DNA of 64,000 nucleotides. Origin: Candidatus Gottesmanbacteria bacterium (GTDB lineage: Bacteria; Patescibacteriota; Microgenomatia; UBA10105; UBA927). The notes beneath the pieces were generated by a model. That model saw only the letters and a list, made by a program, of their open reading frames with translations. It was not told the DNA's origin and searched no databases. Every line of letters starts with the position of its first letter. Positions within the stretch are counted from its first letter, which is position 1. Below, one piece after another: positions 1,938-57,250 of the stretch. A program made the position numbers and the translations under genes. The stretch spans positions 121,368-185,367 of the forward strand of contig JAHFKN010000003.1 in NCBI GenBank assembly GCA_023245355.1. Direction: 5' to 3'.

Positions 1938-3569
1938 GTGGAAAGAGTGAAACAAACCCGTGGTATTCATGATCTGATCCGGCGGTACGGCCTGTATGTA
2001 CTTCTTGTAGTCATATTGGGGATCGGAGCATGGTTTCGGTTTTTCCATATTTTCCGGTCCACCTGGATGCTGGAAGGATACGATGAGTCCCGCGACATGT
2101 TAGTTGCGCGCCACATTGTGGAGTACGGGGATTGGCTATGGCGCGGACCATTGGCTTCCGGGAGCATGAATGCGCTGATGAATTCTCCCGTGTACTACTA
2201 TGTGTTGTCCGTCCTTTGGTTTATCGGCAGATCGCCGTTTTCCGTCATGCTGCTGTGGGCGGCATTGCTTATGAGCGTCGTCTATATGGCATACAGGACA
2301 GGCGTTGAGGCCGGGGATAAACAGTTGGGGATTATCATGGCGCTGTTGTTTGCCCTGCAGCCGACGCTTATCAGCAACAGCAGGCATATCTCGCAGCCGT
2401 ACCTGTTGCCGTTATTTTCCATCCTGTTTTTATGGCTGTTCTGGCGGAGAGGAACGATGACGCTTTGGAGGTTTTGTCTGTTGATTGTCGTTCTTCTGTT
2501 TCCCATGCATATCCATTACGGAAGTCTGCTGATGCTTCCTGCCGGCCTCCTTTGGCTCGGGGTTGTATGGGCAGAGCACGCATTCCGGAAACAGGGAGGA
2601 TTGACATGGAAAATCATACCGCCTCTTGTTGTCGAGTATGTTCTGATGACATGGGTGTGGTTTACTTACGGGAAAACTCCGTTTGACCAGCAGTTTTATC
2701 TGGCTGACGAAATGCACCGGACATTACCCACTGTTCTTCTCAAAATGCGGGACGCGTGGATAGTGACGGCAGATAACATCTGGTGGTCCAAAGATCCCGT
2801 CGTTGTTATCGGCATGCTGATGTTTTTTGCGGGATGTGCCGTTTGGTACGAAAAACAGCGGACGCATCAGAAGCACTCGGGGAGCCGGTCATATTGGTGG
2901 ATGATCTGTTTTGCAGTAATTCCTCCTCTTGTTGCCGGGTTCCACGGGGACAGTGTTCATACCTATTATATGCTCGGCACGCTTCCGGTTCTTCTGTTTA
3001 TTATCGCGGCAGGATTGCATGCATTGCTCTCCTGGAACCGGTATGTGGGGATTGTGTGCATCGGCATCGTCCTATGGATATTTATAGAACAGGCGTCAAC
3101 GGTTATTACCGAGGTTCCGAGAAGACCGTATGTTCAGCAATTGCGGGAGGTGTCAAACATGCTGTATGACGATTACCGTTTTCGGGAGCCGGCAGCAGCG
3201 GGAACCCCCTCACCTTCTATCGCGCTTGCTGTGCTGGCCGGAAAGAACCTGCCGTACGACGGGTGGGGCACGGGGGCACTTTGGTATTTTTTGGAAGAGT
3301 ATTTCAAGCAACGGCTCGTGCGCCTGGATAATTACGGCACGAATTTTTTCCCCGTCGTACAACATCCTTCGTATTTTTACGTACTGTGTGATTACCGGGG
3401 GTTCGGGTCGGATGACAGATGCACGCGGGATTTTAGAGCAGCGAGAACGTATCTTCTGGACAAAAAAGAGGAAAAAATATACGCTGCCGGACCGTTCGTA
3501 TTATGGTTGTTTTACGTCAATCCGTCTCTGCCCGTTTCAAACTATAATATCGCGTATCCGGGATTATAA
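1938..3569 (+). CDS. GT-C fold glycosyltransferase, ArnT/PMT-like (paralog 1)
   Basis: 543-aa polytopic membrane protein. First extracytoplasmic loop carries YDESRDMLVARHIVEYGDW, resembling the DE...GDW motif of ArnT (GT83)/PMT (GT39). GTG start. Confidence 0.55.
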   Translation: MERVKQTRGIHDLIRRYGLYVLLVVILGIGAWFRFFHIFRSTWMLEGYDESRDMLVARHIVEYGDWLWRGPLASGSMNALMNSPVYYYVLSVLWFIGRSPFSVMLLWAALLMSVVYMAYRTGVEAGDKQLGIIMALLFALQPTLISNSRHISQPYLLPLFSILFLWLFWRRGTMTLWRFCLLIVVLLFPMHIHYGSLLMLPAGLLWLGVVWAEHAFRKQGGLTWKIIPPLVVEYVLMTWVWFTYGKTPFDQQFYLADEMHRTLPTVLLKMRDAWIVTADNIWWSKDPVVVIGMLMFFAGCAVWYEKQRTHQKHSGSRSYWWMICFAVIPPLVAGFHGDSVHTYYMLGTLPVLLFIIAAGLHALLSWNRYVGIVCIGIVLWIFIEQASTVITEVPRRPYVQQLREVSNMLYDDYRFREPAAAGTPSPSIALAVLAGKNLPYDGWGTGALWYFLEEYFKQRLVRLDNYGTNFFPVVQHPSYFYVLCDYRGFGSDDRCTRDFRAARTYLLDKKEEKIYAAGPFVLWLFYVNPSLPVSNYNIAYPGL

Positions 3570-4061: not shown

Positions 4062-5696
4062 ATGACCTGGTGGAAACGCACATGGCACGATTGGTACAGA
4101 CGTTTTGACGGACTTACTGATCTCCAGCGCGTCATCGTATTATTTTTCTGTATCGTTATCCTGCATGTACCATCACTGCAGCATGTGTATCTTGCCGCAG
4201 TAAATTACGATGACGGGAGAGATATACTGGTGGCGTCGCATATACTCCGAAACGGGGAATTTCCATTACGAGGCCCATTTGCAGCAGGAGGGTTCAATAT
4301 ACTGCGCAATTCTCCGCTTTATTATTATTTGATTGCATTGTTTCATCTGGCAGGCGGGTATAGTTTAGCCGGAACCTACCTGTTGTGGATACTCGTGTCG
4401 GTATGCTCCGTAAGCCTGCTTTATAGCGTTATAGTATATATTTGGCATGATAGGAACATAGCCGTTGTTTCTGCAGTTTTGGCCGGTATACACCCTTTGT
4501 ATTTTGCCGTCAGCGGTACGATCGCTCAGCCGTATTTATTGACGATTCTGACTTCCATAATGCTGGTATTGATATTTAAACCCGAGCACAGGCTCTCCGA
4601 TGTGCTTTGGATGATTGTTGTTCTCTCTGTCGGCATGCACATTCATCTGAGCATGGTGTTATTGGTGCCGGTTATCAGCGTATGGATAGGTATAACCAGT
4701 TACCGGTTGTATATGAGATCACACAGGTCCATCGAAGTACTACTATGGCCCGTTGCGGTAGCATTCGTATCGGCCGTGTATTGGTTTGCCCTTACGTTCC
4801 GGCAAAGCGTGATGGATCAGGCAGACGCGGTCCTTTCAGGAAAATTTATAAGTTTACATGAAATTCAGTCTGCCTTTCCCCGGATTATAGCAACGTGGAT
4901 TGACCTTGTCGTCGGTATTGACCGTCAGAATACACCCGTATTTATAGGTATGGTAAGTATCATTATCGGGGCAATGTTTTTTTCGGGCATACTGTATCCC
5001 GGAAAAACGCGGCGTGAACACCTCTATTGGTTGGCATTATTGTTTATCACGCCGCTATATTATTCGATATTTTATCGGGGAACAGTCGTAAACGGCTATT
5101 TCATAGTGCTGCTTCCTATCATGATGGTTGTCGGCGCGGGGGTTATACACATGATCTCCCGGATACATATCTATGCAGGAGCGGGTACGGTTTTGTTCGT
5201 AGGATATGTTTTTGTACAATCTGCGCTGCCGCAGATATTCCCGTTTGCACAGATACATATCTTTGAATCGATGCAGTCCGTTGTTCATGCCATAGATATT
5301 AATCAGCAGGTGAGAGCAGGGAAGACGGATGAAGCGGCGCGGGATGATTTTTGGATTGCATTTGTATCAAGTGAGCCGGGAGTATTGGTGGACAGCTGGC
5401 AAACCGGTTCTTTCTGGTATCTCCTTGAACGGAGGATCCGCCATGTATATGTAAGGGTGGTGGATGCCGATATAAATTTTACCGTGCGTAACAGGCACCC
5501 GAAGTATCTGTATCTTATATGTGATGTCCGTGTTTTGCGGATGTATTCCGATATCGATGATTGCGGATATTGGGTCGATCAGATGAATCAGATGTATGGG
5601 CTGTCAAGCGAAGAATTGAGAACAATAAATCCGTATGTGCTCTACGGAATTCCGTTGTCTCCGGAGTCTTTAGAGAAGCTCCCTCAAATTTTCTAA
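4062..5696 (+). CDS. GT-C fold glycosyltransferase, ArnT/PMT-like (paralog 2)
   Basis: 544 aa, clearly paralogous to 1938-3569 (YDDGRDILVASHILRNGEFPLRGPFAAGGFNILRNSPLYYY vs YDESRDMLVARHIVEYGDWLWRGPLASGSMNALMNSPVYYY). Confidence 0.55.
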   Translation: MTWWKRTWHDWYRRFDGLTDLQRVIVLFFCIVILHVPSLQHVYLAAVNYDDGRDILVASHILRNGEFPLRGPFAAGGFNILRNSPLYYYLIALFHLAGGYSLAGTYLLWILVSVCSVSLLYSVIVYIWHDRNIAVVSAVLAGIHPLYFAVSGTIAQPYLLTILTSIMLVLIFKPEHRLSDVLWMIVVLSVGMHIHLSMVLLVPVISVWIGITSYRLYMRSHRSIEVLLWPVAVAFVSAVYWFALTFRQSVMDQADAVLSGKFISLHEIQSAFPRIIATWIDLVVGIDRQNTPVFIGMVSIIIGAMFFSGILYPGKTRREHLYWLALLFITPLYYSIFYRGTVVNGYFIVLLPIMMVVGAGVIHMISRIHIYAGAGTVLFVGYVFVQSALPQIFPFAQIHIFESMQSVVHAIDINQQVRAGKTDEAARDDFWIAFVSSEPGVLVDSWQTGSFWYLLERRIRHVYVRVVDADINFTVRNRHPKYLYLICDVRVLRMYSDIDDCGYWVDQMNQMYGLSSEELRTINPYVLYGIPLSPESLEKLPQIF

Positions 5697-13117: not shown

Positions 13118-13687
13118 ATGATTTTGTCTGACCGGGATATCACCAATGCGCTCCGCACAGGGAGAATTACCATAAGTCCCAAGATTGATAGTAAGACGCA
13201 GCTTGGTTCATGTTCCGTTGATTTGCGGTTAGGTAAACAGTTTCGTATTTTTAACCACAGCAAGTTTGCCTATATTGACCCCAATAACCCGAAGTTATCA
13301 ACCGACATGATGGCGGAAGTCAAAATCAAAGACGGCGAGCCGTTTATCCTGCAGCCCGGTGATTTTGTCCTCGCGACAACCATGGAAACCGTAACGCTTC
13401 CCAATGACTTAGTAGGCAGACTCGAGGGCCGTTCCAGTCTCGGGAGATTGGGAATCGTCGTGCATTCGACCGCGTCAATTTTTGACCCCGGATGGCAGGG
13501 AATGGTCGTTATGGAACTGGGAAACATGGGTCGTATGCCGGTAGCCTTATACCCGGGCATGCGGATTTGCAGCATGACGTTTGAAGAATTATCATCTCCT
13601 GCCCAGGTGCCGTATTCCAAAAAAAGGGCGGCAAAATATATCGGGCAAAACACTCCGTTAGCCAGTAAAATTACTCAGGACAAATAA
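13118..13687 (+). CDS. dcd: dCTP deaminase
   Basis: MILSDRDITNALRTGRITISP...SVDLRLG...GWQG...LYPG is typical of Dcd/dUTPase-fold dCTP deaminase. 189 aa from ATG 13118; the ORF-track start at 13007 is over-extended. Confidence 0.75.
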   Translation: MILSDRDITNALRTGRITISPKIDSKTQLGSCSVDLRLGKQFRIFNHSKFAYIDPNNPKLSTDMMAEVKIKDGEPFILQPGDFVLATTMETVTLPNDLVGRLEGRSSLGRLGIVVHSTASIFDPGWQGMVVMELGNMGRMPVALYPGMRICSMTFEELSSPAQVPYSKKRAAKYIGQNTPLASKITQDK

Positions 13688-15216
13688 TGGATTGGCCAAT
13701 TCTGTATAAGCAGGTATTGCATGTCAAAGACCCCGCAAATCCCGTCGGGGTTGCCATCATGTGGACGGAACGTCAGGTGGTCGCCGACATGCTCAAAGAC
13801 GAGAACTACTGCGCTATCGGCAACCTGTATTCGTCTGCCGGAATATCCGCCATGATCCGCAATGTGTATGCCAATCCGCATGTGCGGAAAATCATACTGT
13901 GGGGCGCGGATCTTTCCCGAAGCGGCCAGGCTCTTATGGCACTTATGGCAAACGGAGTCGATGAAAACTTTTTTATCATCGGAGATGAAAAGGGCGGCCA
14001 GATAGAAAAAGAAATCGGCCGCGAAGCGATTGATCTGTTCCGCTCTTCCGTCGAGGTGATTAACCTGCGCGGCAAGTCGCCGGATGAACTCCGGAAAACG
14101 GTGGCAAAATACAGCGGTGAAACGCCGGTGCCGTTTACGGAGTCCAAAAAATTCCCGACCAGCAGGCCCAAGCCGTTTACCTTTCCCTCAGAACAAATCG
14201 GATTCCGTATTCACGGTAACACGGCGGCCCAGACCTGGCTTAAGATTCTTCACAATATTATCCGGTACGGCCGTAATAAAACGACGCGATATACGCAGGA
14301 AAACGAACTGAAGGAGTTGTTGAACGTGATGGCGGTCGTGTACGAAGAAGATCCGGAAAAGCCCTACCTTCCGAAGTTTTTTCCGTTTTCCGAAAAGGAT
14401 CTTGCCTCCTATTACCCGCAGGTGCTCTCTGCCAAACAAATTCCCGGCATAGCGTATACGTACGGGCAGCGGCTCCGTGATCATGACGGCATAGATCAGA
14501 TTCAGAATATTATCGACTTAATCAAAAACCGGCCGTTCAGTAAAAAAATGGTCGCGTTTACGGCAAAAATCAAAGAGGATTGGTCGGTGGTCAATAAAGG
14601 CGACACGCCGTGTCTTACACAAATTCTCTGCAGCATTCAGGACGGAAAACTGTTTATGACGACGCATTTCCGGAGCCAGGATATGGTGCACGGCTGGCCG
14701 CGCAACGTATTCAGTCTGCGCAAACTCCAGAAACTTATCTGTGACGAATCCGGGGTTCCCATGGGTGCATTCGTCATGATTACGCATAGTGCGCACATAT
14801 ACAGTGATGATTATGAGCTGGTAGAAAAAATCCTCAAGGAAAATTATGAAAAAGAATTAGGCTACACCAGCCGCCAGATGTTCGAAGATGATCCGCGTGG
14901 CAATATCACGATTGAGATAGAAGAAATAGGGACGAAACCGGTCGGACGGCCGACGAAGTATGCGGTGAAACCGACAGATAAAGAGTATGAAATCGTGCTG
15001 AAAATGTATGCGCCCAACGGCGGATTGTTGCTCAAAGAATGGCGCGGTAAAACGGCAATGGATATATATATTGATCTTATCAATATCGGCGACTATCTCG
15101 TATTACCGAGCCACGCTATATACATAGGCAGCGAGTTGCAGCGAGCGGAATACTATATCAAGCTCGGTATTGCGGAACTATTCAACCAGGATCCTGCGGC
15201 CAACAAGGCCCTGTAA
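13687..15216 (+). CDS. thyA: Thymidylate synthase (ThyA-type) with N-terminal MtrA-like domain (fusion)
   Basis: The C-terminal half has the ThyA core (DTPCLTQILCSIQDGKLFMTTHFRSQDMVHGWPRNVFSLRKLQ, cf. PCH...FQF...LSCQLYQRS.D..LG.PFNIAS). The N-terminal ~130 aa resemble tetrahydromethanopterin S-methyltransferase subunit A (WPIL...V.DP.NPVGVA...NP.VRKIILWGAD.S.SGQAL). TAATG overlap with dcd. Confidence 0.6.
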   Translation: MDWPILYKQVLHVKDPANPVGVAIMWTERQVVADMLKDENYCAIGNLYSSAGISAMIRNVYANPHVRKIILWGADLSRSGQALMALMANGVDENFFIIGDEKGGQIEKEIGREAIDLFRSSVEVINLRGKSPDELRKTVAKYSGETPVPFTESKKFPTSRPKPFTFPSEQIGFRIHGNTAAQTWLKILHNIIRYGRNKTTRYTQENELKELLNVMAVVYEEDPEKPYLPKFFPFSEKDLASYYPQVLSAKQIPGIAYTYGQRLRDHDGIDQIQNIIDLIKNRPFSKKMVAFTAKIKEDWSVVNKGDTPCLTQILCSIQDGKLFMTTHFRSQDMVHGWPRNVFSLRKLQKLICDESGVPMGAFVMITHSAHIYSDDYELVEKILKENYEKELGYTSRQMFEDDPRGNITIEIEEIGTKPVGRPTKYAVKPTDKEYEIVLKMYAPNGGLLLKEWRGKTAMDIYIDLINIGDYLVLPSHAIYIGSELQRAEYYIKLGIAELFNQDPAANKAL

Positions 15217-17631: not shown

Positions 17632-19440
17632 TCATTTTACGGTGACGCTTTTAGCAAGGTTCCTGGGCATATCCGGATCAAACCCCCGTTCGATCGTAAG
17701 GTAATATGCCAGGAGCTGCGCGACGATCACATTCGGGATAATGGTCGCTTCGCCGACATCCGAAACAGGGATATATTCGTCAAACACCTCGTCCGGTTTA
17801 TGCGATACCCCGATGATGTATCCTCCCCGCGCTTTCATTTCCATGGCATTGGCCAGTGTCGATTGGTAATGCATGTCATTTGCCGCATAAACGATACAGG
17901 GAACGCCTTTGGTCACCAGTGCCAACGGGCCATGTTTCAATTCTCCTGCCGCGACTCCCTCCGCATGGATATAGGAAATTTCCTTTATTTTCAATGCGCT
18001 CTCGAGAGCCGTTGAATAGGAAAGTCCTTTTCCGATCACAAAAATATGTTCGACCGCTTTGAGTTCGTGCGCGATGCGCTTGAGTTGGTCAATCCGTTCA
18101 GGTTTCAAGGCCTCCTTTGCGGCCTTGGCGGCAGATGCGACTAACCGTTGTCCTGTTTTGACATCATTTTTCATGGCATGTGCCATCAGAATGAGCTGTG
18201 CGACCACCGCGGTGAACGCTTTGGTAGATGCAACTCCTTTTTCCGGACCTGCCCCGATCGGGAGTGTCAGGTCTGCCATGCGCCAGAGAGATGACCCCAC
18301 GACATTGACAAGCGACATGACTTTGGTGCCGTTATTTTTTGCGCGTTTGACAACCTCCATAAGGTCCATGGTTTCTCCTGATTGGGAAAGAGCCACGATG
18401 ATACTGCCCGGCGGAAGCAGATCGATATGATGATGCATTTCCGTCGGACTGCTCCAGTTGGTAAGTTTTTGGGCGACAGTGGCAAACAGATATGATGCTG
18501 ATCTGGCTGCATACCCGCTGGTTCCGCTTCCGACGATATATATTCTCGGCGCCGTATTGAGCTCATGAGCCAGTAGCATCGCCTGTTGTGTAGATTCAGC
18601 GGCAATTTCTGACAGCATGCCCGGCTGATCAAAAATTTCCTTAAGCATAAAATACGGAAATGTTCCTTTTTCCGCTTCTTTCGCAGTCCAGGTAAGCTGT
18701 TGTTTGCGCGGGCGGATTCTTCTGCCTGTTTTCGCATCAAATATGTGAATGCCGCCTCTGGAGACGACCGCCATCTCGTTATCTTCCAGATAATGGACTT
18801 GTTTGGTATGCGGCAAAAGGGCTGCCGGATCGCTTGCCAGAAAATTTTCTCCGTTTCCGAAGCCGACTACCAGCGGGGAGCCGTTTCGGGCTGCTACCAT
18901 CTCATCCGCTTGGGTATTAATGAGGATTATGGCGTTTAATCCATCCAGATCATTAAATGCCGCCTGTACCGCTTTTGAAAACGCGGGAGCCGCGTCCCGC
19001 GCGGATACGGTAAACCGCTTGAGATACTCTTCTACCAGATGGGCGATCACCTCACTGTCTGTCTCCGAAACGAAACGGTGCCCCTTTTTTATCAGTCCTG
19101 CCTTGAGGGTTTCGTAATTTTCTACGATACCGTTATGAATCACGGCAATAGTGCCCGTACAATCCAGATGGGGATGGGCGTTTATATCCGTAACTCCGCC
19201 GTGCGTTGCCCAACGCGTGTGACCGAATGCAAGCGTGCCGCTAGGCAACTCTGTAACCGTTGCATTGCCGATTTTTCCTGCTTTCTTTTTTACGACAATG
19301 GTTTGTTTGCCGCTCTGTTGTACGGGAACCACAGCAACACCCCAGCTGTCATAGCCGCGGTATTCGAGCGCCTTAAGTCCGTCGAGAACAATTGTCGGAG
19401 CTGTTTTTTGCTTGCCGATATATCCGAAAATGCCGCACAT
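17632..19440 (-). CDS. glmS: Glutamine--fructose-6-phosphate aminotransferase
   Basis: N-terminal MCGIFGYIG (Ntn amidotransferase Cys2), two SIS domains, 602 aa. Confidence 0.9.
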   Translation of the reverse strand: MCGIFGYIGKQKTAPTIVLDGLKALEYRGYDSWGVAVVPVQQSGKQTIVVKKKAGKIGNATVTELPSGTLAFGHTRWATHGGVTDINAHPHLDCTGTIAVIHNGIVENYETLKAGLIKKGHRFVSETDSEVIAHLVEEYLKRFTVSARDAAPAFSKAVQAAFNDLDGLNAIILINTQADEMVAARNGSPLVVGFGNGENFLASDPAALLPHTKQVHYLEDNEMAVVSRGGIHIFDAKTGRRIRPRKQQLTWTAKEAEKGTFPYFMLKEIFDQPGMLSEIAAESTQQAMLLAHELNTAPRIYIVGSGTSGYAARSASYLFATVAQKLTNWSSPTEMHHHIDLLPPGSIIVALSQSGETMDLMEVVKRAKNNGTKVMSLVNVVGSSLWRMADLTLPIGAGPEKGVASTKAFTAVVAQLILMAHAMKNDVKTGQRLVASAAKAAKEALKPERIDQLKRIAHELKAVEHIFVIGKGLSYSTALESALKIKEISYIHAEGVAAGELKHGPLALVTKGVPCIVYAANDMHYQSTLANAMEMKARGGYIIGVSHKPDEVFDEYIPVSDVGEATIIPNVIVAQLLAYYLTIERGFDPDMPRNLAKSVTVK

Positions 19441-19479
19441 AGTGCCTCCTTACAGAGCATGGGTACCACGCTCACGTGT

Positions 19480-19727
19480 TATAGAAAAATTTGAGTTTGT
19501 TGTATCAGAAGAGATGCGGGCTCCGTTTCAGTTGCGTTCTATGTCCCGGTTTACACCAGGATTTTTCGCAAGAATTGCGGTGGGGAGTGCCACCGAGGGG
19601 TTTCCGCAGATACTTTAATAATCGCTCAATTTGATGCCAATCATTAAGTCCGATTGTCCCGATCCTATCGGGACACCCCTTCCTCGTATCCCAGCTCTTC
19701 GTGAAGGGCTGGGCCACACGCTATTAA
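19480..19727 (-). ncRNA. Candidate glmS ribozyme in glmS 5' leader
   Basis: The minus-strand leader reads AUAGCG-UGUGG-[CCCAGC...GCUGGG hairpin]-AUACGAGGAAGGGGUG-[GUCCCGAU...AUCGGGAC hairpin]...CCCCUCGG. This parallels the B. subtilis core AUA/GCGCC-[P1 hairpin]-UGACGAGGAUGGAGGU-[P2 hairpin]...CCUCCC. It sits directly upstream of glmS. Confidence 0.45.
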
Positions 19728-19868
19728 TTTCTCTGGCAAAGCCAGATCCCGCTTCGCGGGACAATTTCCGCTCTCTGTGTAAATGTGCTCCTTCCTAGTG
19801 CCAATGCTACTCTTGTCAGATTCTTATTGTCAAGAAAGGCCACGTGTGGTAGAACCCATAGATGCAAT

Positions 19869-20513
19869 ATGAAAGAACAACATGAATACATAGCGGTGAT
19901 GGGGACGATGGGGAGCGGTAAAACGACTGCAGCAAACCTGCTTGCCAAAGAGCTGAATTTCACCCTTATAGAAGAAAATGTAAAGGAAAATGCATTTTTG
20001 CCGAGGTTTTATAAAGACATGAGCAGATGGGCATTTCATTCGCAGGTATTTTTCCTGATGGAAAAAATACGGCAGATGATAGAGGCAAAGACACTCTTGG
20101 GAAAAACCTCAGTCGTACAGGATACGCCCATTACGCAGGACGTCTATTCGTATGCCCAAGCACAGCACAAGTTGGGCAATATGGATGACGCCGAGTGGGC
20201 GCTGTACCAGAAAATTTATCATGAATTTACGCCCCATTTTCCTGCTCCTGACCTTATTGTTTTTTTGGATACGTCCATTCCGGTTATAGAGCAGCGGATT
20301 GCATCCCGCGGACGGGGATTCGAGCAGACAATTCCTACGGATTACCTCACGTTACTGGACAGACTGAACCGCAAATGGCTGGAACAAAACACAAACATTC
20401 CGGTTGTTGTCGTGCATACGGACACCCTTGATATCACAAGAAACAGGGATGCACAGGAACAATTTACCTCGATCGTGCGGCACGCACTGCATAGCAAAGG
20501 TAGTGTACACTAA
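19869..20513 (+). CDS. Deoxynucleoside kinase (dAK/dGK/dCK family)
   Basis: IAVMGTMGSGKTTAANLLAKELNFTLIEE and downstream motifs of the dNK family. Start at ATG 19869 (MKEQHEY); the ORF-track start at 19785 is over-extended. Confidence 0.6.
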   Translation: MKEQHEYIAVMGTMGSGKTTAANLLAKELNFTLIEENVKENAFLPRFYKDMSRWAFHSQVFFLMEKIRQMIEAKTLLGKTSVVQDTPITQDVYSYAQAQHKLGNMDDAEWALYQKIYHEFTPHFPAPDLIVFLDTSIPVIEQRIASRGRGFEQTIPTDYLTLLDRLNRKWLEQNTNIPVVVVHTDTLDITRNRDAQEQFTSIVRHALHSKGSVH

Positions 20514-48323: not shown

Positions 48324-50318
48324 CTAACCCTCCTTTTTTAACGGTATTGTTATTGATACGGTCGTCCCGTGATTATCGGCAACCGGACTTTTGAGGGTAA
48401 CGGTTCCGCCCCAGCCTTCTACATATGACTTTACTATAAATAACCCCAGTCCTGCACCCTGTGCGTCGGTAAGCCTTCCGGTTGTGGTGCGGTAAAACTT
48501 GGTAAACAGTTTATTCTGTTCTCCGACGGGTATCCCTATACCCGTATCGGTCACGGCGATCTCGACGGCGTTGGGGTGGCGGAGTATATCGACGGTAACG
48601 GAGCCCCCCGGAGTATTGTATTTGACGGCGTTGGACAGAATATTTTCAATTGCCCCGTTTAAGTGTTTCGGGTCGACGGTTGCATGGACGGAAGTCAGTT
48701 TGCTGTTTAGATGTATTTGTATTTTCTGGCGTCTGGCAAAGTCCGCGTTTTCCGAAATCCTAGCCGATATAACCGCTACGACATCTGTTTTTTCCGGATA
48801 GTTCGGCAGTTTTCCCTGAATAATGTGCGCGATGTCCAGAAGTTCGTTTACCGATTTTACCATCAGACGGTTGCTTTCAAATATGCGCATGAGTTTTTCC
48901 CTGATGGCCGGCGGGAGTTTTATGTTCGGATCAATAATCGATTCCAGGTTCCAGCGTATAGCCGTAAGCGGGGAGCGGAGCTGGTGAGCCGCGGTCATAA
49001 GAAATTCATCTTTGGCCCGTTCGAGTTCCTTGCGTTCCGTTATATCCCGGAAATTTATTACGATGGCCTGTACGGACGGATCAAACAGCAAGCTTCTGCC
49101 GATGGTTTCTATCCATATCCACCTGCCGTCCTTATGTTTCATGCGGTACTGTCCGAAAATTGACTCTTTCGGATTCATGACTACGTCTGATAAATCCTTT
49201 TTGGCTTTTTCTACATCTTCCGAATGGATGAATGAAAATCCGCTCCGTCCCAGTACTTCTTCCGGTTTATACCCTAGGACCGTATACGTCGACGGACTGG
49301 CATACGTTATGACGGAGCCCGGGTCTGTCAGAACGACCGCATCGGTATTTTTTTCGATAAGCGCCTGGAACCTCCGTTCACGGGTGTATAACGTCTGATC
49401 GGTATGCTTCCGGTCTTCGACTGCGGCGGCTACCGTAAGTTTGGTTACCCCGATGATCACCATAAATATCTGAAGCTGCTGTAGGGCTTCATTCGTCGTT
49501 GATGCATGTGACATAAACGGACCGGATCCGTGCATGGTCGCATAGGTTGTAACCATCATAATAATCGTAAGCAGGGTTGCTGTTTCCCGGAGCTCAAAAC
49601 GGAATGCCGACCAGATAAGCGGAAGGATAAACAGATACGGATGTGGAAATCTCAGCGGGATAATGATGTAGAAAATTCCGAGCAGAGCAAAACACAACAG
49701 GACAAACTCCGCAGCTTTCAGCGGTTGTATGCTGACTCTTGGGCGTGCATACCACAGAAGCAGTACGGGGGTGAAAACGACAGCGCCGCCCATGTCTCCT
49801 AACCACCAGGTAAGCCAGACCTGATGGGCGAGTGAGGGATCCAACAGTCTTGTACTGATGAGCATGCCGATACCGATTGCAGCGCTGATGGCAGTGGCAA
49901 GCCCGGCAACAAACGCAAACCTGACGACATCCATCGGCCGTTCAAAAACCTTTGTGCCGCTGGCAAACCTGTTTATACACCACGTGGCAATGATAGCTTC
50001 CAATGAGTTGCCGACGGCAATACCCAGGGACGAAAAAAGCATGCCGGATGTCGTCAGATTTACAAAAAATGAACCGATCAGTATGAGCGGCCACATACGT
50101 ATGCCGAAGATAAGCAGTGCCGCAATTGCAAATCCCGTGGGAGGCCAGATAGCCGAAACGTTTGGGTTGATGCTGGCAAATTCCAACCCTATTTTTCCGA
50201 GGATAAAATAGATGACGGCCAGTCCTGCTAAAAGGAAAAGCGATCCTGGATTCGGGACGGCAGTTTTTTTCACGGTCTTATTTAGTTGTACCCCGTTTGT
50301 TTGTGAAATACAACACAA
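48324..50318 (-). CDS. Sensor histidine kinase (MASE1-like membrane sensor + PAS + HisKA + HATPase_c)
   Basis: N-terminal polytopic MASE1-like region, PAS (FQALIEKNTDAVVLTD), H-box AAHQLRSPLTAI, and G1/G2 boxes (DTGIGIP, GAGLGL). Confidence 0.8.
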   Translation of the reverse strand: MCCISQTNGVQLNKTVKKTAVPNPGSLFLLAGLAVIYFILGKIGLEFASINPNVSAIWPPTGFAIAALLIFGIRMWPLILIGSFFVNLTTSGMLFSSLGIAVGNSLEAIIATWCINRFASGTKVFERPMDVVRFAFVAGLATAISAAIGIGMLISTRLLDPSLAHQVWLTWWLGDMGGAVVFTPVLLLWYARPRVSIQPLKAAEFVLLCFALLGIFYIIIPLRFPHPYLFILPLIWSAFRFELRETATLLTIIMMVTTYATMHGSGPFMSHASTTNEALQQLQIFMVIIGVTKLTVAAAVEDRKHTDQTLYTRERRFQALIEKNTDAVVLTDPGSVITYASPSTYTVLGYKPEEVLGRSGFSFIHSEDVEKAKKDLSDVVMNPKESIFGQYRMKHKDGRWIWIETIGRSLLFDPSVQAIVINFRDITERKELERAKDEFLMTAAHQLRSPLTAIRWNLESIIDPNIKLPPAIREKLMRIFESNRLMVKSVNELLDIAHIIQGKLPNYPEKTDVVAVISARISENADFARRQKIQIHLNSKLTSVHATVDPKHLNGAIENILSNAVKYNTPGGSVTVDILRHPNAVEIAVTDTGIGIPVGEQNKLFTKFYRTTTGRLTDAQGAGLGLFIVKSYVEGWGGTVTLKSPVADNHGTTVSITIPLKKEG

Positions 50319-55728: not shown

Positions 55729-56913
55729 TCAGATGAGATGTTTTGTCCGCAGCTGGCGATAGAGTGCGTGTTTCTCAAAGAGAATAGCGCCTGTGCCGAT
55801 CAGGACAAAGACGGCGCGGGCAAGCCAGCCCAAGACCGGGATAAGCGTAAATACTCCCAGGACGATGAGTCCCAAGAGCAGGTGCCATGCCCGGTGTACG
55901 TCAGCTTTTAGCCCCGTAAATATGCCGTTTCCGATGAACACCGCAGCATAGAGGTGTCCTGCTACGCACAGCAGTCCGAGCGCCATAAAGAGAAACATAC
56001 CGATCGGTATGCCGACAATCGTCGACATGGAGGCTATTGCCAACACCGGAAGCAGTATGACCGTGACAATCCCTAACCCGAATGATCCCCACATGTTTTT
56101 CTGCATTCCCTGAACCGTTTTATCGGTAAATACCGGAAACATCGCAAATAGGATGAGTCCCAGGACAAACAGTGCGGCAGTACCTACGACCGCCATGGTA
56201 ATGGCAAATCCCGCGATGATACCTGCAAATGCCTTCATGTCTCCTTTGGCGATTTTGGCCTGCTTTGCTTCATTTTTCGGCATCTGGTGAAATACCAGTT
56301 CTCCTGATAACGCGACATTGTCGGCTATGGTCGCTTCGCGTTCGCCCCAGTAGGTGACGTTTCCGGCAACTTTGGTTTTGGACTGCAGGATAAGTTCATC
56401 GACCGCCAGCAGCATATCGCCGCCGACTGAGTTATTGACCGTAAGTGTACCGGCACCCGCCGTAACCCCCCGTCCTGTGGGGGCGTAAATCCCTATGTTA
56501 CCCGCGCCCGCAAGGATACTGCCGGTGATTTTGGCATCCGGACTTATGATGACCGTGCCTCCGCCGAGCGTGACATTGCCTCCGACGGTACTTCCCAGGG
56601 TAAGCGAGCCGCCTGCGGCCCGGATATCATTTTTGACCGGTCCGCTGACCTGGATCGTGCCTCCGAGGGCAAACAGGTCGCCGTTTATCGTGCCGTCGAT
56701 TACGATTGATCCGCCTGCCAAATACACGTCTCCGTTGACGGTGCCCGATACCCGGACGGAATCACCGGCTGCGAAATAGTCTTTGTTGACGACCTCTTTG
56801 CGTTCCAGCACGGAAACGGTTTGTGGTCTGGAATCAGAAGTAGCATACGCGGAGCGGGCAAAAAACGTAACGGAAAGTAATACGAGGACAAAAAATTTTG
56901 CAAATAATTTCAT
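55729..56913 (-). CDS. Bactofilin-like (polymer-forming cytoskeletal repeat) domain protein with signal peptide and C-terminal TM bundle
   Basis: Signal peptide MKLFAKFFVLVLLSVTFFARSAYA, then repeated G-rich beta-helix strands (GDVYLAGGSIVIDGTINGDLFALGGTIQVSGPVKNDIRAAGGSLTLG...) typical of bactofilin/DUF583, then 4-5 TM helices. The ORF-track start at 57144 is over-extended. Confidence 0.5.
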   Translation of the reverse strand: MKLFAKFFVLVLLSVTFFARSAYATSDSRPQTVSVLERKEVVNKDYFAAGDSVRVSGTVNGDVYLAGGSIVIDGTINGDLFALGGTIQVSGPVKNDIRAAGGSLTLGSTVGGNVTLGGGTVIISPDAKITGSILAGAGNIGIYAPTGRGVTAGAGTLTVNNSVGGDMLLAVDELILQSKTKVAGNVTYWGEREATIADNVALSGELVFHQMPKNEAKQAKIAKGDMKAFAGIIAGFAITMAVVGTAALFVLGLILFAMFPVFTDKTVQGMQKNMWGSFGLGIVTVILLPVLAIASMSTIVGIPIGMFLFMALGLLCVAGHLYAAVFIGNGIFTGLKADVHRAWHLLLGLIVLGVFTLIPVLGWLARAVFVLIGTGAILFEKHALYRQLRTKHLI

Positions 56914-57250
56914 TGATGTACCCCTCTCTAAACCCACGATACACAATGTGAAAACTAATGTAAATAGTGTGAAACTTACGGGATATATCCGCAGGGGGTA
57001 ACAGGCGGAGTGCTTGCAGGGTTGCCGTGGCGTACCCATGAGCCGTTTACACACCGCCACGTATCTTCCGGTCCTCCAAGGAGAAATCGGGCAATAAACA
57101 TAAGGAGTGCGGCTATCGCGGTAATACCCGCGACTTTTATCCATGTCGTCTGCATATCACCTATTATATACCCTCCCGCTAAACAGGCTGATGCTAGGTT
57201 TGGTACAATAATGCTTCATGATCTGGCAATCACTTCCGCGTCCGTTTCTC

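Follow-up and report, generated by a model that had tools for sequence, protein, structure and literature searches.

The stretch analysed here, called the window in the following, comprises 64,000 nt of contig JAHFKN010000003.1 of a Candidatus Gottesmanbacteria bacterium, and the element in question is a member of the glmS ribozyme family encoded in the 5' untranslated leader of the glmS gene. The GlmS product contains class-II glutamine amidotransferase (GATase) and SIS domains (Pfam), and the identical protein is known only from metagenome contigs. The divergent neighbour is a gene for a deoxynucleoside kinase (dNK) with its ATG at 19869 on the plus strand. An earlier note on this DNA, made from the letters alone, had placed a candidate glmS ribozyme at 19480-19727 within a region of 428 nt between the two genes. 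The length of this intergenic region is correct, because the glmS open reading frame (ORF) covers 17632-19440 (-) and dNK starts at 19869 (+). The span of the candidate has to be redrawn at both sides: the ribozyme ends at about 19520, or at 19510 if the closing helix P0 described below is counted, and functional 5' parts extend to 19776.

17632..19440, minus strand: glmS coding sequence, glutamine-fructose-6-phosphate aminotransferase, 602 aa (ORF; Pfam SIS, GATase_6, GATase_7)

The search with Infernal against RF00234, which the earlier note had proposed as a check, gave a clear match (Rfam 15 cmscan) at 19733-19520 (-) with 58.0 bits against a gathering threshold of 37 (E 8.9e-11). The match covers the full model (positions 1-167 of 167), and RF00234 is the only Rfam family above gathering in the whole window. 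The ribozyme is in sense orientation to glmS, the match ends 80 nt before the GlmS ATG, and the same placement before glmS is found in 21 relatives. It is a member of RF00234 and not a new kind of element, since everything tested for membership was found computationally: the profile match, the helices, the conserved active site and the position before glmS.

The relatives come from a GlmS protein scan of one genome per GTDB species, which yielded 80 loci (handles beginning with L below). The best named GlmS relatives (70-76% identity) belong to Candidatus Gottesmanbacteria, the next ones to Woesebacteria, Roizmanbacteria, Levybacteria and other Microgenomates/Patescibacteria, which places the window, too, with a Gottesmanbacteria-like member of the Patescibacteria. 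The earlier note had expected an unusual occurrence outside the lineages where the ribozyme is mostly reported, and the nearest named relatives, being Candidatus Gottesmanbacteria and thus Microgenomates of the candidate phyla radiation (CPR), agree with this; according to reviews, the glmS class is found in many Gram-positive bacteria (PMC5473149). The ribozyme is present in 21 of the 80 loci, including all 12 nearest ones (GlmS identity 59-80%). Fifteen of these reach the gathering threshold, namely 13 among the 19 nearest loci as well as L030 and L046, each with the RF00234 match immediately before glmS; two are just below the threshold (L006 with 36.6 bits, L012 with 31.8 bits), and four were recognised by motif and architecture. 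The latter (L008, L027, L035 and L063) have leaders with all core motifs in the right order, yet they are unreported by RF00234 even at E <= 0.01. These misses probably stem from long P1 or hairpin insertions, and because 6 of the 21 loci are below gathering or undetected, CPR genomes are probably under-annotated for RF00234. No RF00234 match was found in any of the other 56 loci, and a loose regular-expression scan of the whole loci gave many chance matches and no further ribozyme beside glmS. Farther out the distribution is patchy, with several other Gottesmanbacteria lacking the ribozyme; conservation spans relatives at only 46-80% GlmS identity.

A number of the records with a CPR-type GlmS and the ribozyme (L003, L004, L011-L014 and others) are metagenome-assembled genomes (third-party assemblies, TPA) titled 'uncultured Gammaproteobacteria bacterium'. 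These titles look wrong, as the records interleave with Gottesmanbacteria and carry the same ribozyme type, and we treated them as unreliable.

Catalytic core, peripheral domain and covariation

Ribozyme coordinates are given on the minus strand of the window, and residue numbers (A-1, G1 and so on) follow the B. subtilis ribozyme. The ribozymes of the window and its relatives are referred to as the clade.

19721..19722, minus strand: predicted self-cleavage site, A-1 (19722) / G1 (19721) (aligned to A/GCG of the RF00234 consensus)
19715..19720, minus strand: P2.2 5' strand, C2 G3 U4 G5 (19720-19717), bulged U6 (19716) and G7 (19715) (partners 19608-19605 and C62 at 19609)
19690..19713, minus strand: P1 hairpin CCCAGC...GCUGGG (Rfam alignment and minimum free energy (MFE) fold)
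19681..19687, minus strand: core strand ACGAGGA (A37-A43), with C38 and G39 (19686, 19685) as P2.1 5' strand and G42 at 19682 (invariant in 22/22 clade sequences)
19676..19680, minus strand: P2 5' strand AGGGG (pairs with CCCCU at 19600-19596)
19656..19674, minus strand: hairpin A, GUCCCGAU-AGG-AUCGGGAC, between the P2 5' and P2.1 3' strands (folding of clade sequences)
19648..19655, minus strand: conserved AAUCGGAC, with C54 and G55 (19652, 19651) as P2.1 3' strand (clade conservation)
19610..19650, minus strand: hairpin B, extending the small P2.1-P2.2 connecting loop, flanks G-AC...GU-AU (folding of clade sequences)
19603..19609, minus strand: P2.2 3' strand C62 U63 G64 C65 G66, then G67 and A68 of the active site/cofactor pocket (C-GCGG invariant in the clade)
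19596..19600, minus strand: P2 3' strand CCCCU (pair counts, 21 sequences)
19578..19595, minus strand: P3 hairpin CGGUGG-CACUCC-CCACCG; its loop CUCC (19587-19584) is the P3.1 5' strand (Rfam alignment)
19527..19574, minus strand: P4/P4.1 domain, P4 19574-19567 with 19536-19527, P4.1 19561-19544 with a GUAA (GNRA) tetraloop (Rfam alignment)
19521..19524, minus strand: P3.1 3' strand GGAG, pseudoknotted with the P3 loop (pair counts, 21 sequences)

The motifs on which the earlier note had built its proposal are all in place on the minus strand: AUA/GCGUGUGG at the cleavage site, the P1 hairpin (19713-19690), AUACGAGGAAGGGGUG (19689-19674), the hairpin GUCCCGAU-AGG-AUCGGGAC (19674-19656) and CCCCUCGG (19600-19593). 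Where it mistook the GUCCCGAU hairpin for the P2 hairpin of the canonical fold, the element is in fact an inserted, clade-specific hairpin (hairpin A), and the true P2.1 partner is AAUCGG at 19655-19650, just 3' of it.

The cleavage-site context AUA/GCG lies at 19724-19719. GCG is invariant across the clade, and A/GCG is found in 21 of the 22 members, L019 reading G/GCG. G19682 occupies the position of the catalytic guanine (G42 in B. subtilis, G40 in T. tengcongensis), and the GGA at 19605-19603 contains G67 (19604) and A68 (19603). No variation was seen in the clade (21-22 sequences) at G1, C2, A37-G42, C54, G55, C62 and G64-G67, and A68 is present in the window. All active-site, cofactor-pocket and P2.1/P2.2 residues named in PMC11602151 and PMC7125110 are present; the former describes the roles of the active-site and cofactor-pocket residues and gives P2.1 as C38-G55 and G39-C54, the latter gives the pairing scheme of P2.2 with the bulged residue 6, which is kept in the window ribozyme. 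The complementary residues required for both pseudoknots are in place, and P2.1 and P2.2 can form. P2.1 consists of C38-G55 (19686-19651) and G39-C54 (19685-19652), P2.2 of C2-G66, G3-C65, U4-G64 and G5-U63, followed by the bulged U6 and by G7-C62, a pair read from the sequence alone. The peripheral domain keeps both the GNRA L4 loop and the purine-rich internal loop IL4 between P4 and P4.1 (AAAAA / ACAUAGAA), the roles of which are described in PMC11602151.

For the structural test we used an alignment of 21 sequences, from which the variable inner parts of three hairpins (P1, A and B) were excised with cut points set by anchor motifs, and scored the eight canonical helices including three pseudoknots. 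P1, P2, P2.1, P2.2, P3, P3.1, P4 and P4.1 are all able to form. In total 85.7% of the cells are paired, compared to 37-50% when the partners are slid by 1-3 columns, two-sided changes occur at 27 of the 39 pairs, and none of 500 shuffles reached the observed values on any of five measures. P2 is paired in 95% of cells with covariation at 4 of 5 pairs, the base of P1 in 86% (4 of 6 pairs), P3 in 87% (4 covarying pairs), P4.1 in 88% (7 of 7 pairs) and P3.1 in 78% (3 of 4 pairs, e.g. UUGAG/CUCAA in L016 and UGAUUG/CAAUUA in L046). P1 folds in every foldable clade member with lengths of 15-105 nt; the P1 of L012 (199 nt, contains Ns) was excluded. P2.2 is paired in 97.6% of cells over the four counted pairs (C2-G5), its variation being one-sided only, which gives weak covariation support, and P2.1 is 98% paired and effectively invariant. 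MAFFT on full-length leaders misplaced the variable hairpins as well as P3 and P4 of distant members. The value of only 62% paired for P4 on the MAFFT alignment is therefore an underestimate, as a bulge in P4 is misplaced, and so is the value of about 77% for P0.

Hairpins inserted in the pseudoknot loops

The Infernal alignment shows one insertion of 56 nt, located in the P2a loop as the Rfam model draws it. Comparison of the 22 clade sequences resolves it into two hairpins that flank the P2.1 3' strand. The conserved order in the clade is A/GCGUGUGG, P1, AU-ACGAGGA-AGGGG, hairpin A, AAUCGGAC and hairpin B, followed by (A)GUAUCUGCGGAAA-CCCCU-CGG, P3, P4/P4.1 and the P3.1 tail. When folded in isolation, hairpin A is found in 19 of the 22 ribozymes (z -2.9 to -9.1; absent in L003, L007 and L013) and hairpin B in 20 of 22, with a length of 23-79 nt and a branched form in L006, L008 and L011. 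The stems of both hairpins are unrelated in sequence among clade members and nonetheless fold, a pattern produced by selection for structure. L003 and L007 have neither hairpin, read AUUAAUCGAAAUUCUGCGG and are of canonical length, while L013 has hairpin B only. From these three members it follows that the AAUCG between the hairpins corresponds to UAUCG of the consensus; in line with this, AAUCGGAC falls in the alignment on AAUCGAAA in L003, which has no insertion, and on UAUCGAA in the consensus. As L003 and L007 do without them, hairpins A and B are dispensable and stand outside the minimal fold, and in the simplest view they would be peripheral elements that aid folding or stability.

For comparison, 23 canonical ribozymes were gathered from metagenomes with the pattern AGCGCC.GAAC...TTGACGAGGA. 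Of the 40 matching loci that were scanned with Rfam, another 16 had no RF00234 match; given the size of the database they were taken as likely chance hits and were left unused. The canonical set (n=23) scores 61-141 bits at a length of 143-179 nt, with no room for hairpin A or B. At two loci where the canonical glmS core pattern matches and RF00234 does not, a RAGATH-18 RNA was found at a distance of about 1 kb from the pattern match (L113:1558-1630, 74 bits; L171:1972-2044, 70 bits).

Some observations concern the hairpins themselves. The flanks of hairpin B, GGAC (19650-19648 side) and AGUAU (19613-19610), are conserved, the hairpin between them is not, and we presume that their AGUA/GA arrangement resembles the bulged-G (loop E / sarcin-ricin) motif. 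A promoter-like site inside hairpin B (19640-19612) was rejected on the ground that the sequence of the hairpin is unconserved. The leader in L002:200-620 belongs to a strain with an identical GlmS and is otherwise about 99% identical to window 19850-19438, with wholly different hairpins A and B: those of L002 resemble L004 (79% GlmS identity), those of the window resemble L009 (71%). Both hairpins seem to be swapped as cassettes, independently of the gene phylogeny.

Candidate promoter, probable closing helix and ribosome-binding site of the leader

Outside the ribozyme proper the leader contains the following features.

19804..19833, minus strand: candidate sigma-70-type promoter, -35 TTGACA (19833-19828), 18-nt spacer, -10 TAGCAT (19809-19804) (consensus scan, 10/12 matches)
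19788..19795, minus strand: purine-rich, Shine-Dalgarno (SD)-like element GGAAGGAG, a few nt 3' of the predicted transcription start (conserved GAAGGAG / GAAAGG(C/A)AC in relatives)
19768..19776, minus strand: P0 5' strand AGAGAGCGG (pairs with 19519-19516 and 19514-19510)
19732..19761, minus strand: two optional leader hairpins, UCCCGCGAAGCGGGA (19761-19747) and UCUGGCUUUGCCAGA (19746-19732), between P0 and the cleavage site (MFE structure)
19510..19519, minus strand: P0 3' strand CCGC-A-UCUCU with A19515 bulged, one nt after P3.1 (complementarity and relatives)
19445..19473, minus strand: hairpin GAGCGUGG-UAC-CCAUGCUC (19473-19455), then the SD sequence AAGGAGG (19451-19445) (hairpin in the MFE structure)

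Ten close relatives were aligned over the 150 nt that precede the cleavage site. The promoter motif TTGACA-17/18-TAG(C/G)AT is at the same place in all ten; in the window its -35 box is only 36 nt away from the divergent dNK start codon. The SD-like tract is likewise present in the 10 closest relatives and recurs in most other clade leaders, and in L011, L021, L046 and L063 it pairs with a pyrimidine tract just 3' of P0. Close to the predicted 5' end of a transcript whose fate would depend on an RNase acting from that end, GGAAGGAG recalls the 5'-proximal SD-like mRNA stabilisers of Bacillus (STAB-SD type), a lead and not an assignment; in several relatives the tract instead looks like the strand of a P0 extension, and the 5' end would then be protected in another manner. 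A small leader ORF was considered and set aside: no AUG or GUG follows directly after the SD-like element, one UUG is found about 20 nt downstream, and the leader contains indels among close relatives. The pair of leader hairpins also occurs in L004 and L006, a single different hairpin in L009 and L014, and none in L003, L005, L007, L008, L010 and L011.

In the ten-relative alignment the conserved leader motif CAGAGAGCGGAAA is complementary to the conserved CCGC-A-UCUCU behind the ribozyme. A leader-tail helix of this kind (P0), with varying sequences and compensatory changes, can be drawn in 22 of 22 clade members, as in the following examples (leader / tail).

P0 in L006 and L010: AGAGAACGG / CCGU..CUCU
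P0 in L013: GGGAGUAA / UUACUCCC
P0 in L018: GGAGCGGU / AUCGCUCC
P0 in L030: GAAGCAA / UUGCUUC
P0 in L035: GGAGGCA / UGCUUCC
P0 in L016: GUGGUU / AACCAC
P0 in L046 and L063: a second extension of 8-9 bp

Because long-window RNAduplex z-scores are meaningless for P0, we used composition-preserving shuffles of short windows, and these gave a combined Fisher p of 1.2e-7 over 14 distinct variants. An alignment in fixed register that uses the sequence only gives a weaker result, with 76.7% paired compared to 37-59% for slid partners and 3 of 500 shuffles reaching the observed value. Ranking of cognate against non-cognate leader/tail duplexes does not discriminate, as the leaders are all purine-rich and the tails all pyrimidine-rich. 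The closing helix P0 is thus likely, not certain, and it would most simply be explained as a peripheral stabiliser stacked on P3.1.

In front of glmS, the hairpin followed by (U)GCUC(C/U)UAAGGAGG recurs in L003, L004, L005, L008 and L009 and also in L010, L012 and L013. CUCC just upstream of GGAG near the glmS start could form a tiny stem that sequesters the SD sequence. The CUCUUC motif behind the ribozyme was considered as a general anti-SD element and rejected, since in the window it pairs only weakly and an SD sequence is missing from several members that bear the motif.

Elsewhere in the window, a 509-aa ORF at 13687-15216 (+) combines Pfam matches to MtrA, to thymidylate synthase and to DUF4346, a pterin-binding family, in an unusual fusion, as read from the identical metagenome contig. 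Three ORFs of 471-544 aa, at 1938-3569 (+), 4062-5696 (+) and 55729-57144 (-), match no Pfam family at E <= 1e-5, and a MASE1-PAS histidine kinase is encoded at 48324-50318 (-).

Function, alternatives and known glmS ribozymes

From the family match, the covariation and the invariant active site we consider it highly probable that the glmS leader encodes a functional glmS ribozyme-riboswitch. The conserved TTGACA/TAGCAT promoter would probably start transcription some 75 nt before the cleavage site, and the RNA would fold into a doubly pseudoknotted core (P1, P2, P2.1, P2.2) braced by P3, P3.1, P4 and P4.1. Accumulated glucosamine-6-phosphate, the product of GlmS, would then enter a preformed pocket, where it would be the cofactor of a cut between A19722 and G19721; through this cut the 5' leader would be lost and a 5'-OH left on the glmS message. 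The cut message would be degraded, most likely by RNase J, and the resulting decrease in GlmS would amount to feedback repression. In B. subtilis, RNase J1 is the 5' exonuclease that tolerates a 5'-OH and degrades the cleaved glmS mRNA. According to PMC12641178, at least 90% of CPR genomes retain RNase J (rnj), which suits this known decay mechanism.

Several points weigh against a functional riboswitch. No RNase J was detected among the ten window proteins scanned (nine of the largest ORFs and dNK), no wider genome search having been made. As P2.1 is invariant, it yields no covariation evidence for or against its pairing. Both hairpins lie within the loops of the double pseudoknot, and crystal structures show residue 50 of the loop that hairpin B occupies in contact with the base of P1 (PMC7125110). 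In addition, the 8-bp hairpin A contains nearly an exact repeat of the P2.1 partner (GAUCGGGAC resembles AAUCGGAC), and could thereby offer a competing register for P2.1. With 58 bits the window ribozyme scores well below the canonical set (61-141 bits), and at well-conserved consensus positions there are systematic departures, namely C4C5 to U4G5, G36 to U36 and A8-U35 to G8.A35. Together with hairpin B in place of a loop whose contact to residue 8 is relevant to catalysis, the last two points would also fit a ribozyme which has kept the glmS fold with altered activity, so that the core changes (U4 G5, G8.A35, U36) and the loop insertions lead to constitutive cleavage, to a response to a different amino-sugar or to a leader that does not cleave. 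We regard such a change as very unlikely: every residue for which a contact to the scissile phosphate or to the cofactor has been described is invariant, the element always precedes glmS, and L003 and L007 show the same core changes with loops of canonical length, from which it follows that these changes are independent of the insertions. The G5-U63 pair of the clade, moreover, falls at the 5-53 pair that PMC7125110 reports as poorly conserved in nature, so variation at this place is known. A chance resemblance to RF00234, or a decaying relic devoid of function, could draw on the moderate bit score and on nothing else; it is effectively refuted by the E-value and the full-length coverage of the model, by conservation with compensatory changes between relatives as distant as stated above, and by core residues that are invariant inside otherwise fast-evolving leaders.

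A different possibility concerns what follows cleavage in a ribozyme that is real. Control of the gene might work through P0 and the 5' purine-rich element and not through simple exposure of a 5'-OH to RNase J: the uncleaved 5' end would be locked or protected in P0 and its extension, and cleavage would detach or destabilise this cap, or free the pyrimidine tract to act against the ribosome-binding site. The presence of P0 throughout the clade with compensatory changes, the SD-like GAAGGAG/GAAAGG element that most members have close to their predicted 5' end, the P0-extending helices with the 5' purine region in L011, L021, L046 and L063, and the pyrimidine stretch (CUCC/CUCU) directly upstream of the SD sequence in many members would all be consistent with it. 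However, pairing between the P0 3' strand and the SD sequence in the window amounts to only 5 bp including a wobble and is not part of the MFE fold, and since L016, L019, L046 and L063 have P0 and no recognisable SD sequence, an anti-SD role is not general. A P0 of 9 bp would also tend to hold the cleaved leader in place, and a stabilising or folding role beside P3.1 accounts for the same data more simply. We therefore judge control through P0 to be unlikely and retain the glucosamine-6-phosphate riboswitch with decay of the cut message as the preferred reading. On top of this reading we tentatively suggest, with slightly less than even confidence, that Microgenomates-type CPR carry a distinct and so far undescribed subclass of glmS ribozymes, with two extra helices in the pseudoknot loops, an obligatory P0 and a remodelled contact between the P1 base and the loop, in which hairpins A and B would be exchangeable cassettes and P0 together with the 5' purine tract may couple cleavage to the loss of a protected 5' end. 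If true, this coupling would be a variation on ribozyme control of mRNA fate.

The glmS ribozyme is, to our knowledge, the only natural ribozyme known to depend on a cofactor, and as far as we know the CPR/Patescibacteria are a huge, uncultured radiation with reduced genomes, in which very little regulation by RNA has been described. Our results extend the range of this cofactor-dependent ribozyme to the CPR/Patescibacteria and suggest that feedback control of the synthesis of amino-sugars, the precursors of the cell envelope, may have been kept in a CPR lineage. The clade also provides natural experiments, with large hairpins tolerated in the loops of a double pseudoknot, sister ribozymes free of insertions and a leader-tail helix. 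A full-text search found no publication linking the glmS ribozyme or riboswitch to the CPR, the Patescibacteria or their sub-phyla, with the variant catalogue of McCown et al. 2011 outside its scope. The new part is the lineage together with the added helices, and similar insertion variants may already be contained in McCown et al. 2011.

Within the clade, L003 and L007 share with the window the common core (GCGUGUGG, AUACGAGGA and UCUGCGG), P0, the promoter and the leader motifs, and differ from it by the lack of hairpins A and B. With the glmS ribozymes of the Bacillota (B. subtilis, B. anthracis, Thermoanaerobacter tengcongensis) the window ribozyme has in common the location in the glmS 5' untranslated region, the A/G cleavage site, all eight helices, the ACGAGGA core, C54-G55, C62, GCGG-A, the bulged residue 6, the GNRA L4 loop and the purine-rich IL4. 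It differs from them in its host, which belongs to the CPR/Patescibacteria, in the inserted hairpin A and in hairpin B, which replaces the P2.1-P2.2 loop of 4 nt (canonical length according to PMC7125110). At the level of single residues, canonical C4C5 correspond to U4G5 in the clade and G63 to U63, the A8-U35 pair at the base of P1 to G8.A35 and G36 to U36, and the clade has the conserved flanks G-AC...GU-AU around hairpin B. As residue 50 of the P2.1-P2.2 loop contacts residue 8 (PMC7125110), the changes at position 8 and in the loop may be linked. P0, finally, is found in 22 of 22 clade members, whereas among the 23 canonical ribozymes it is clear in only three (L173, L083 and L154; p 0.002-0.014), and most have none.

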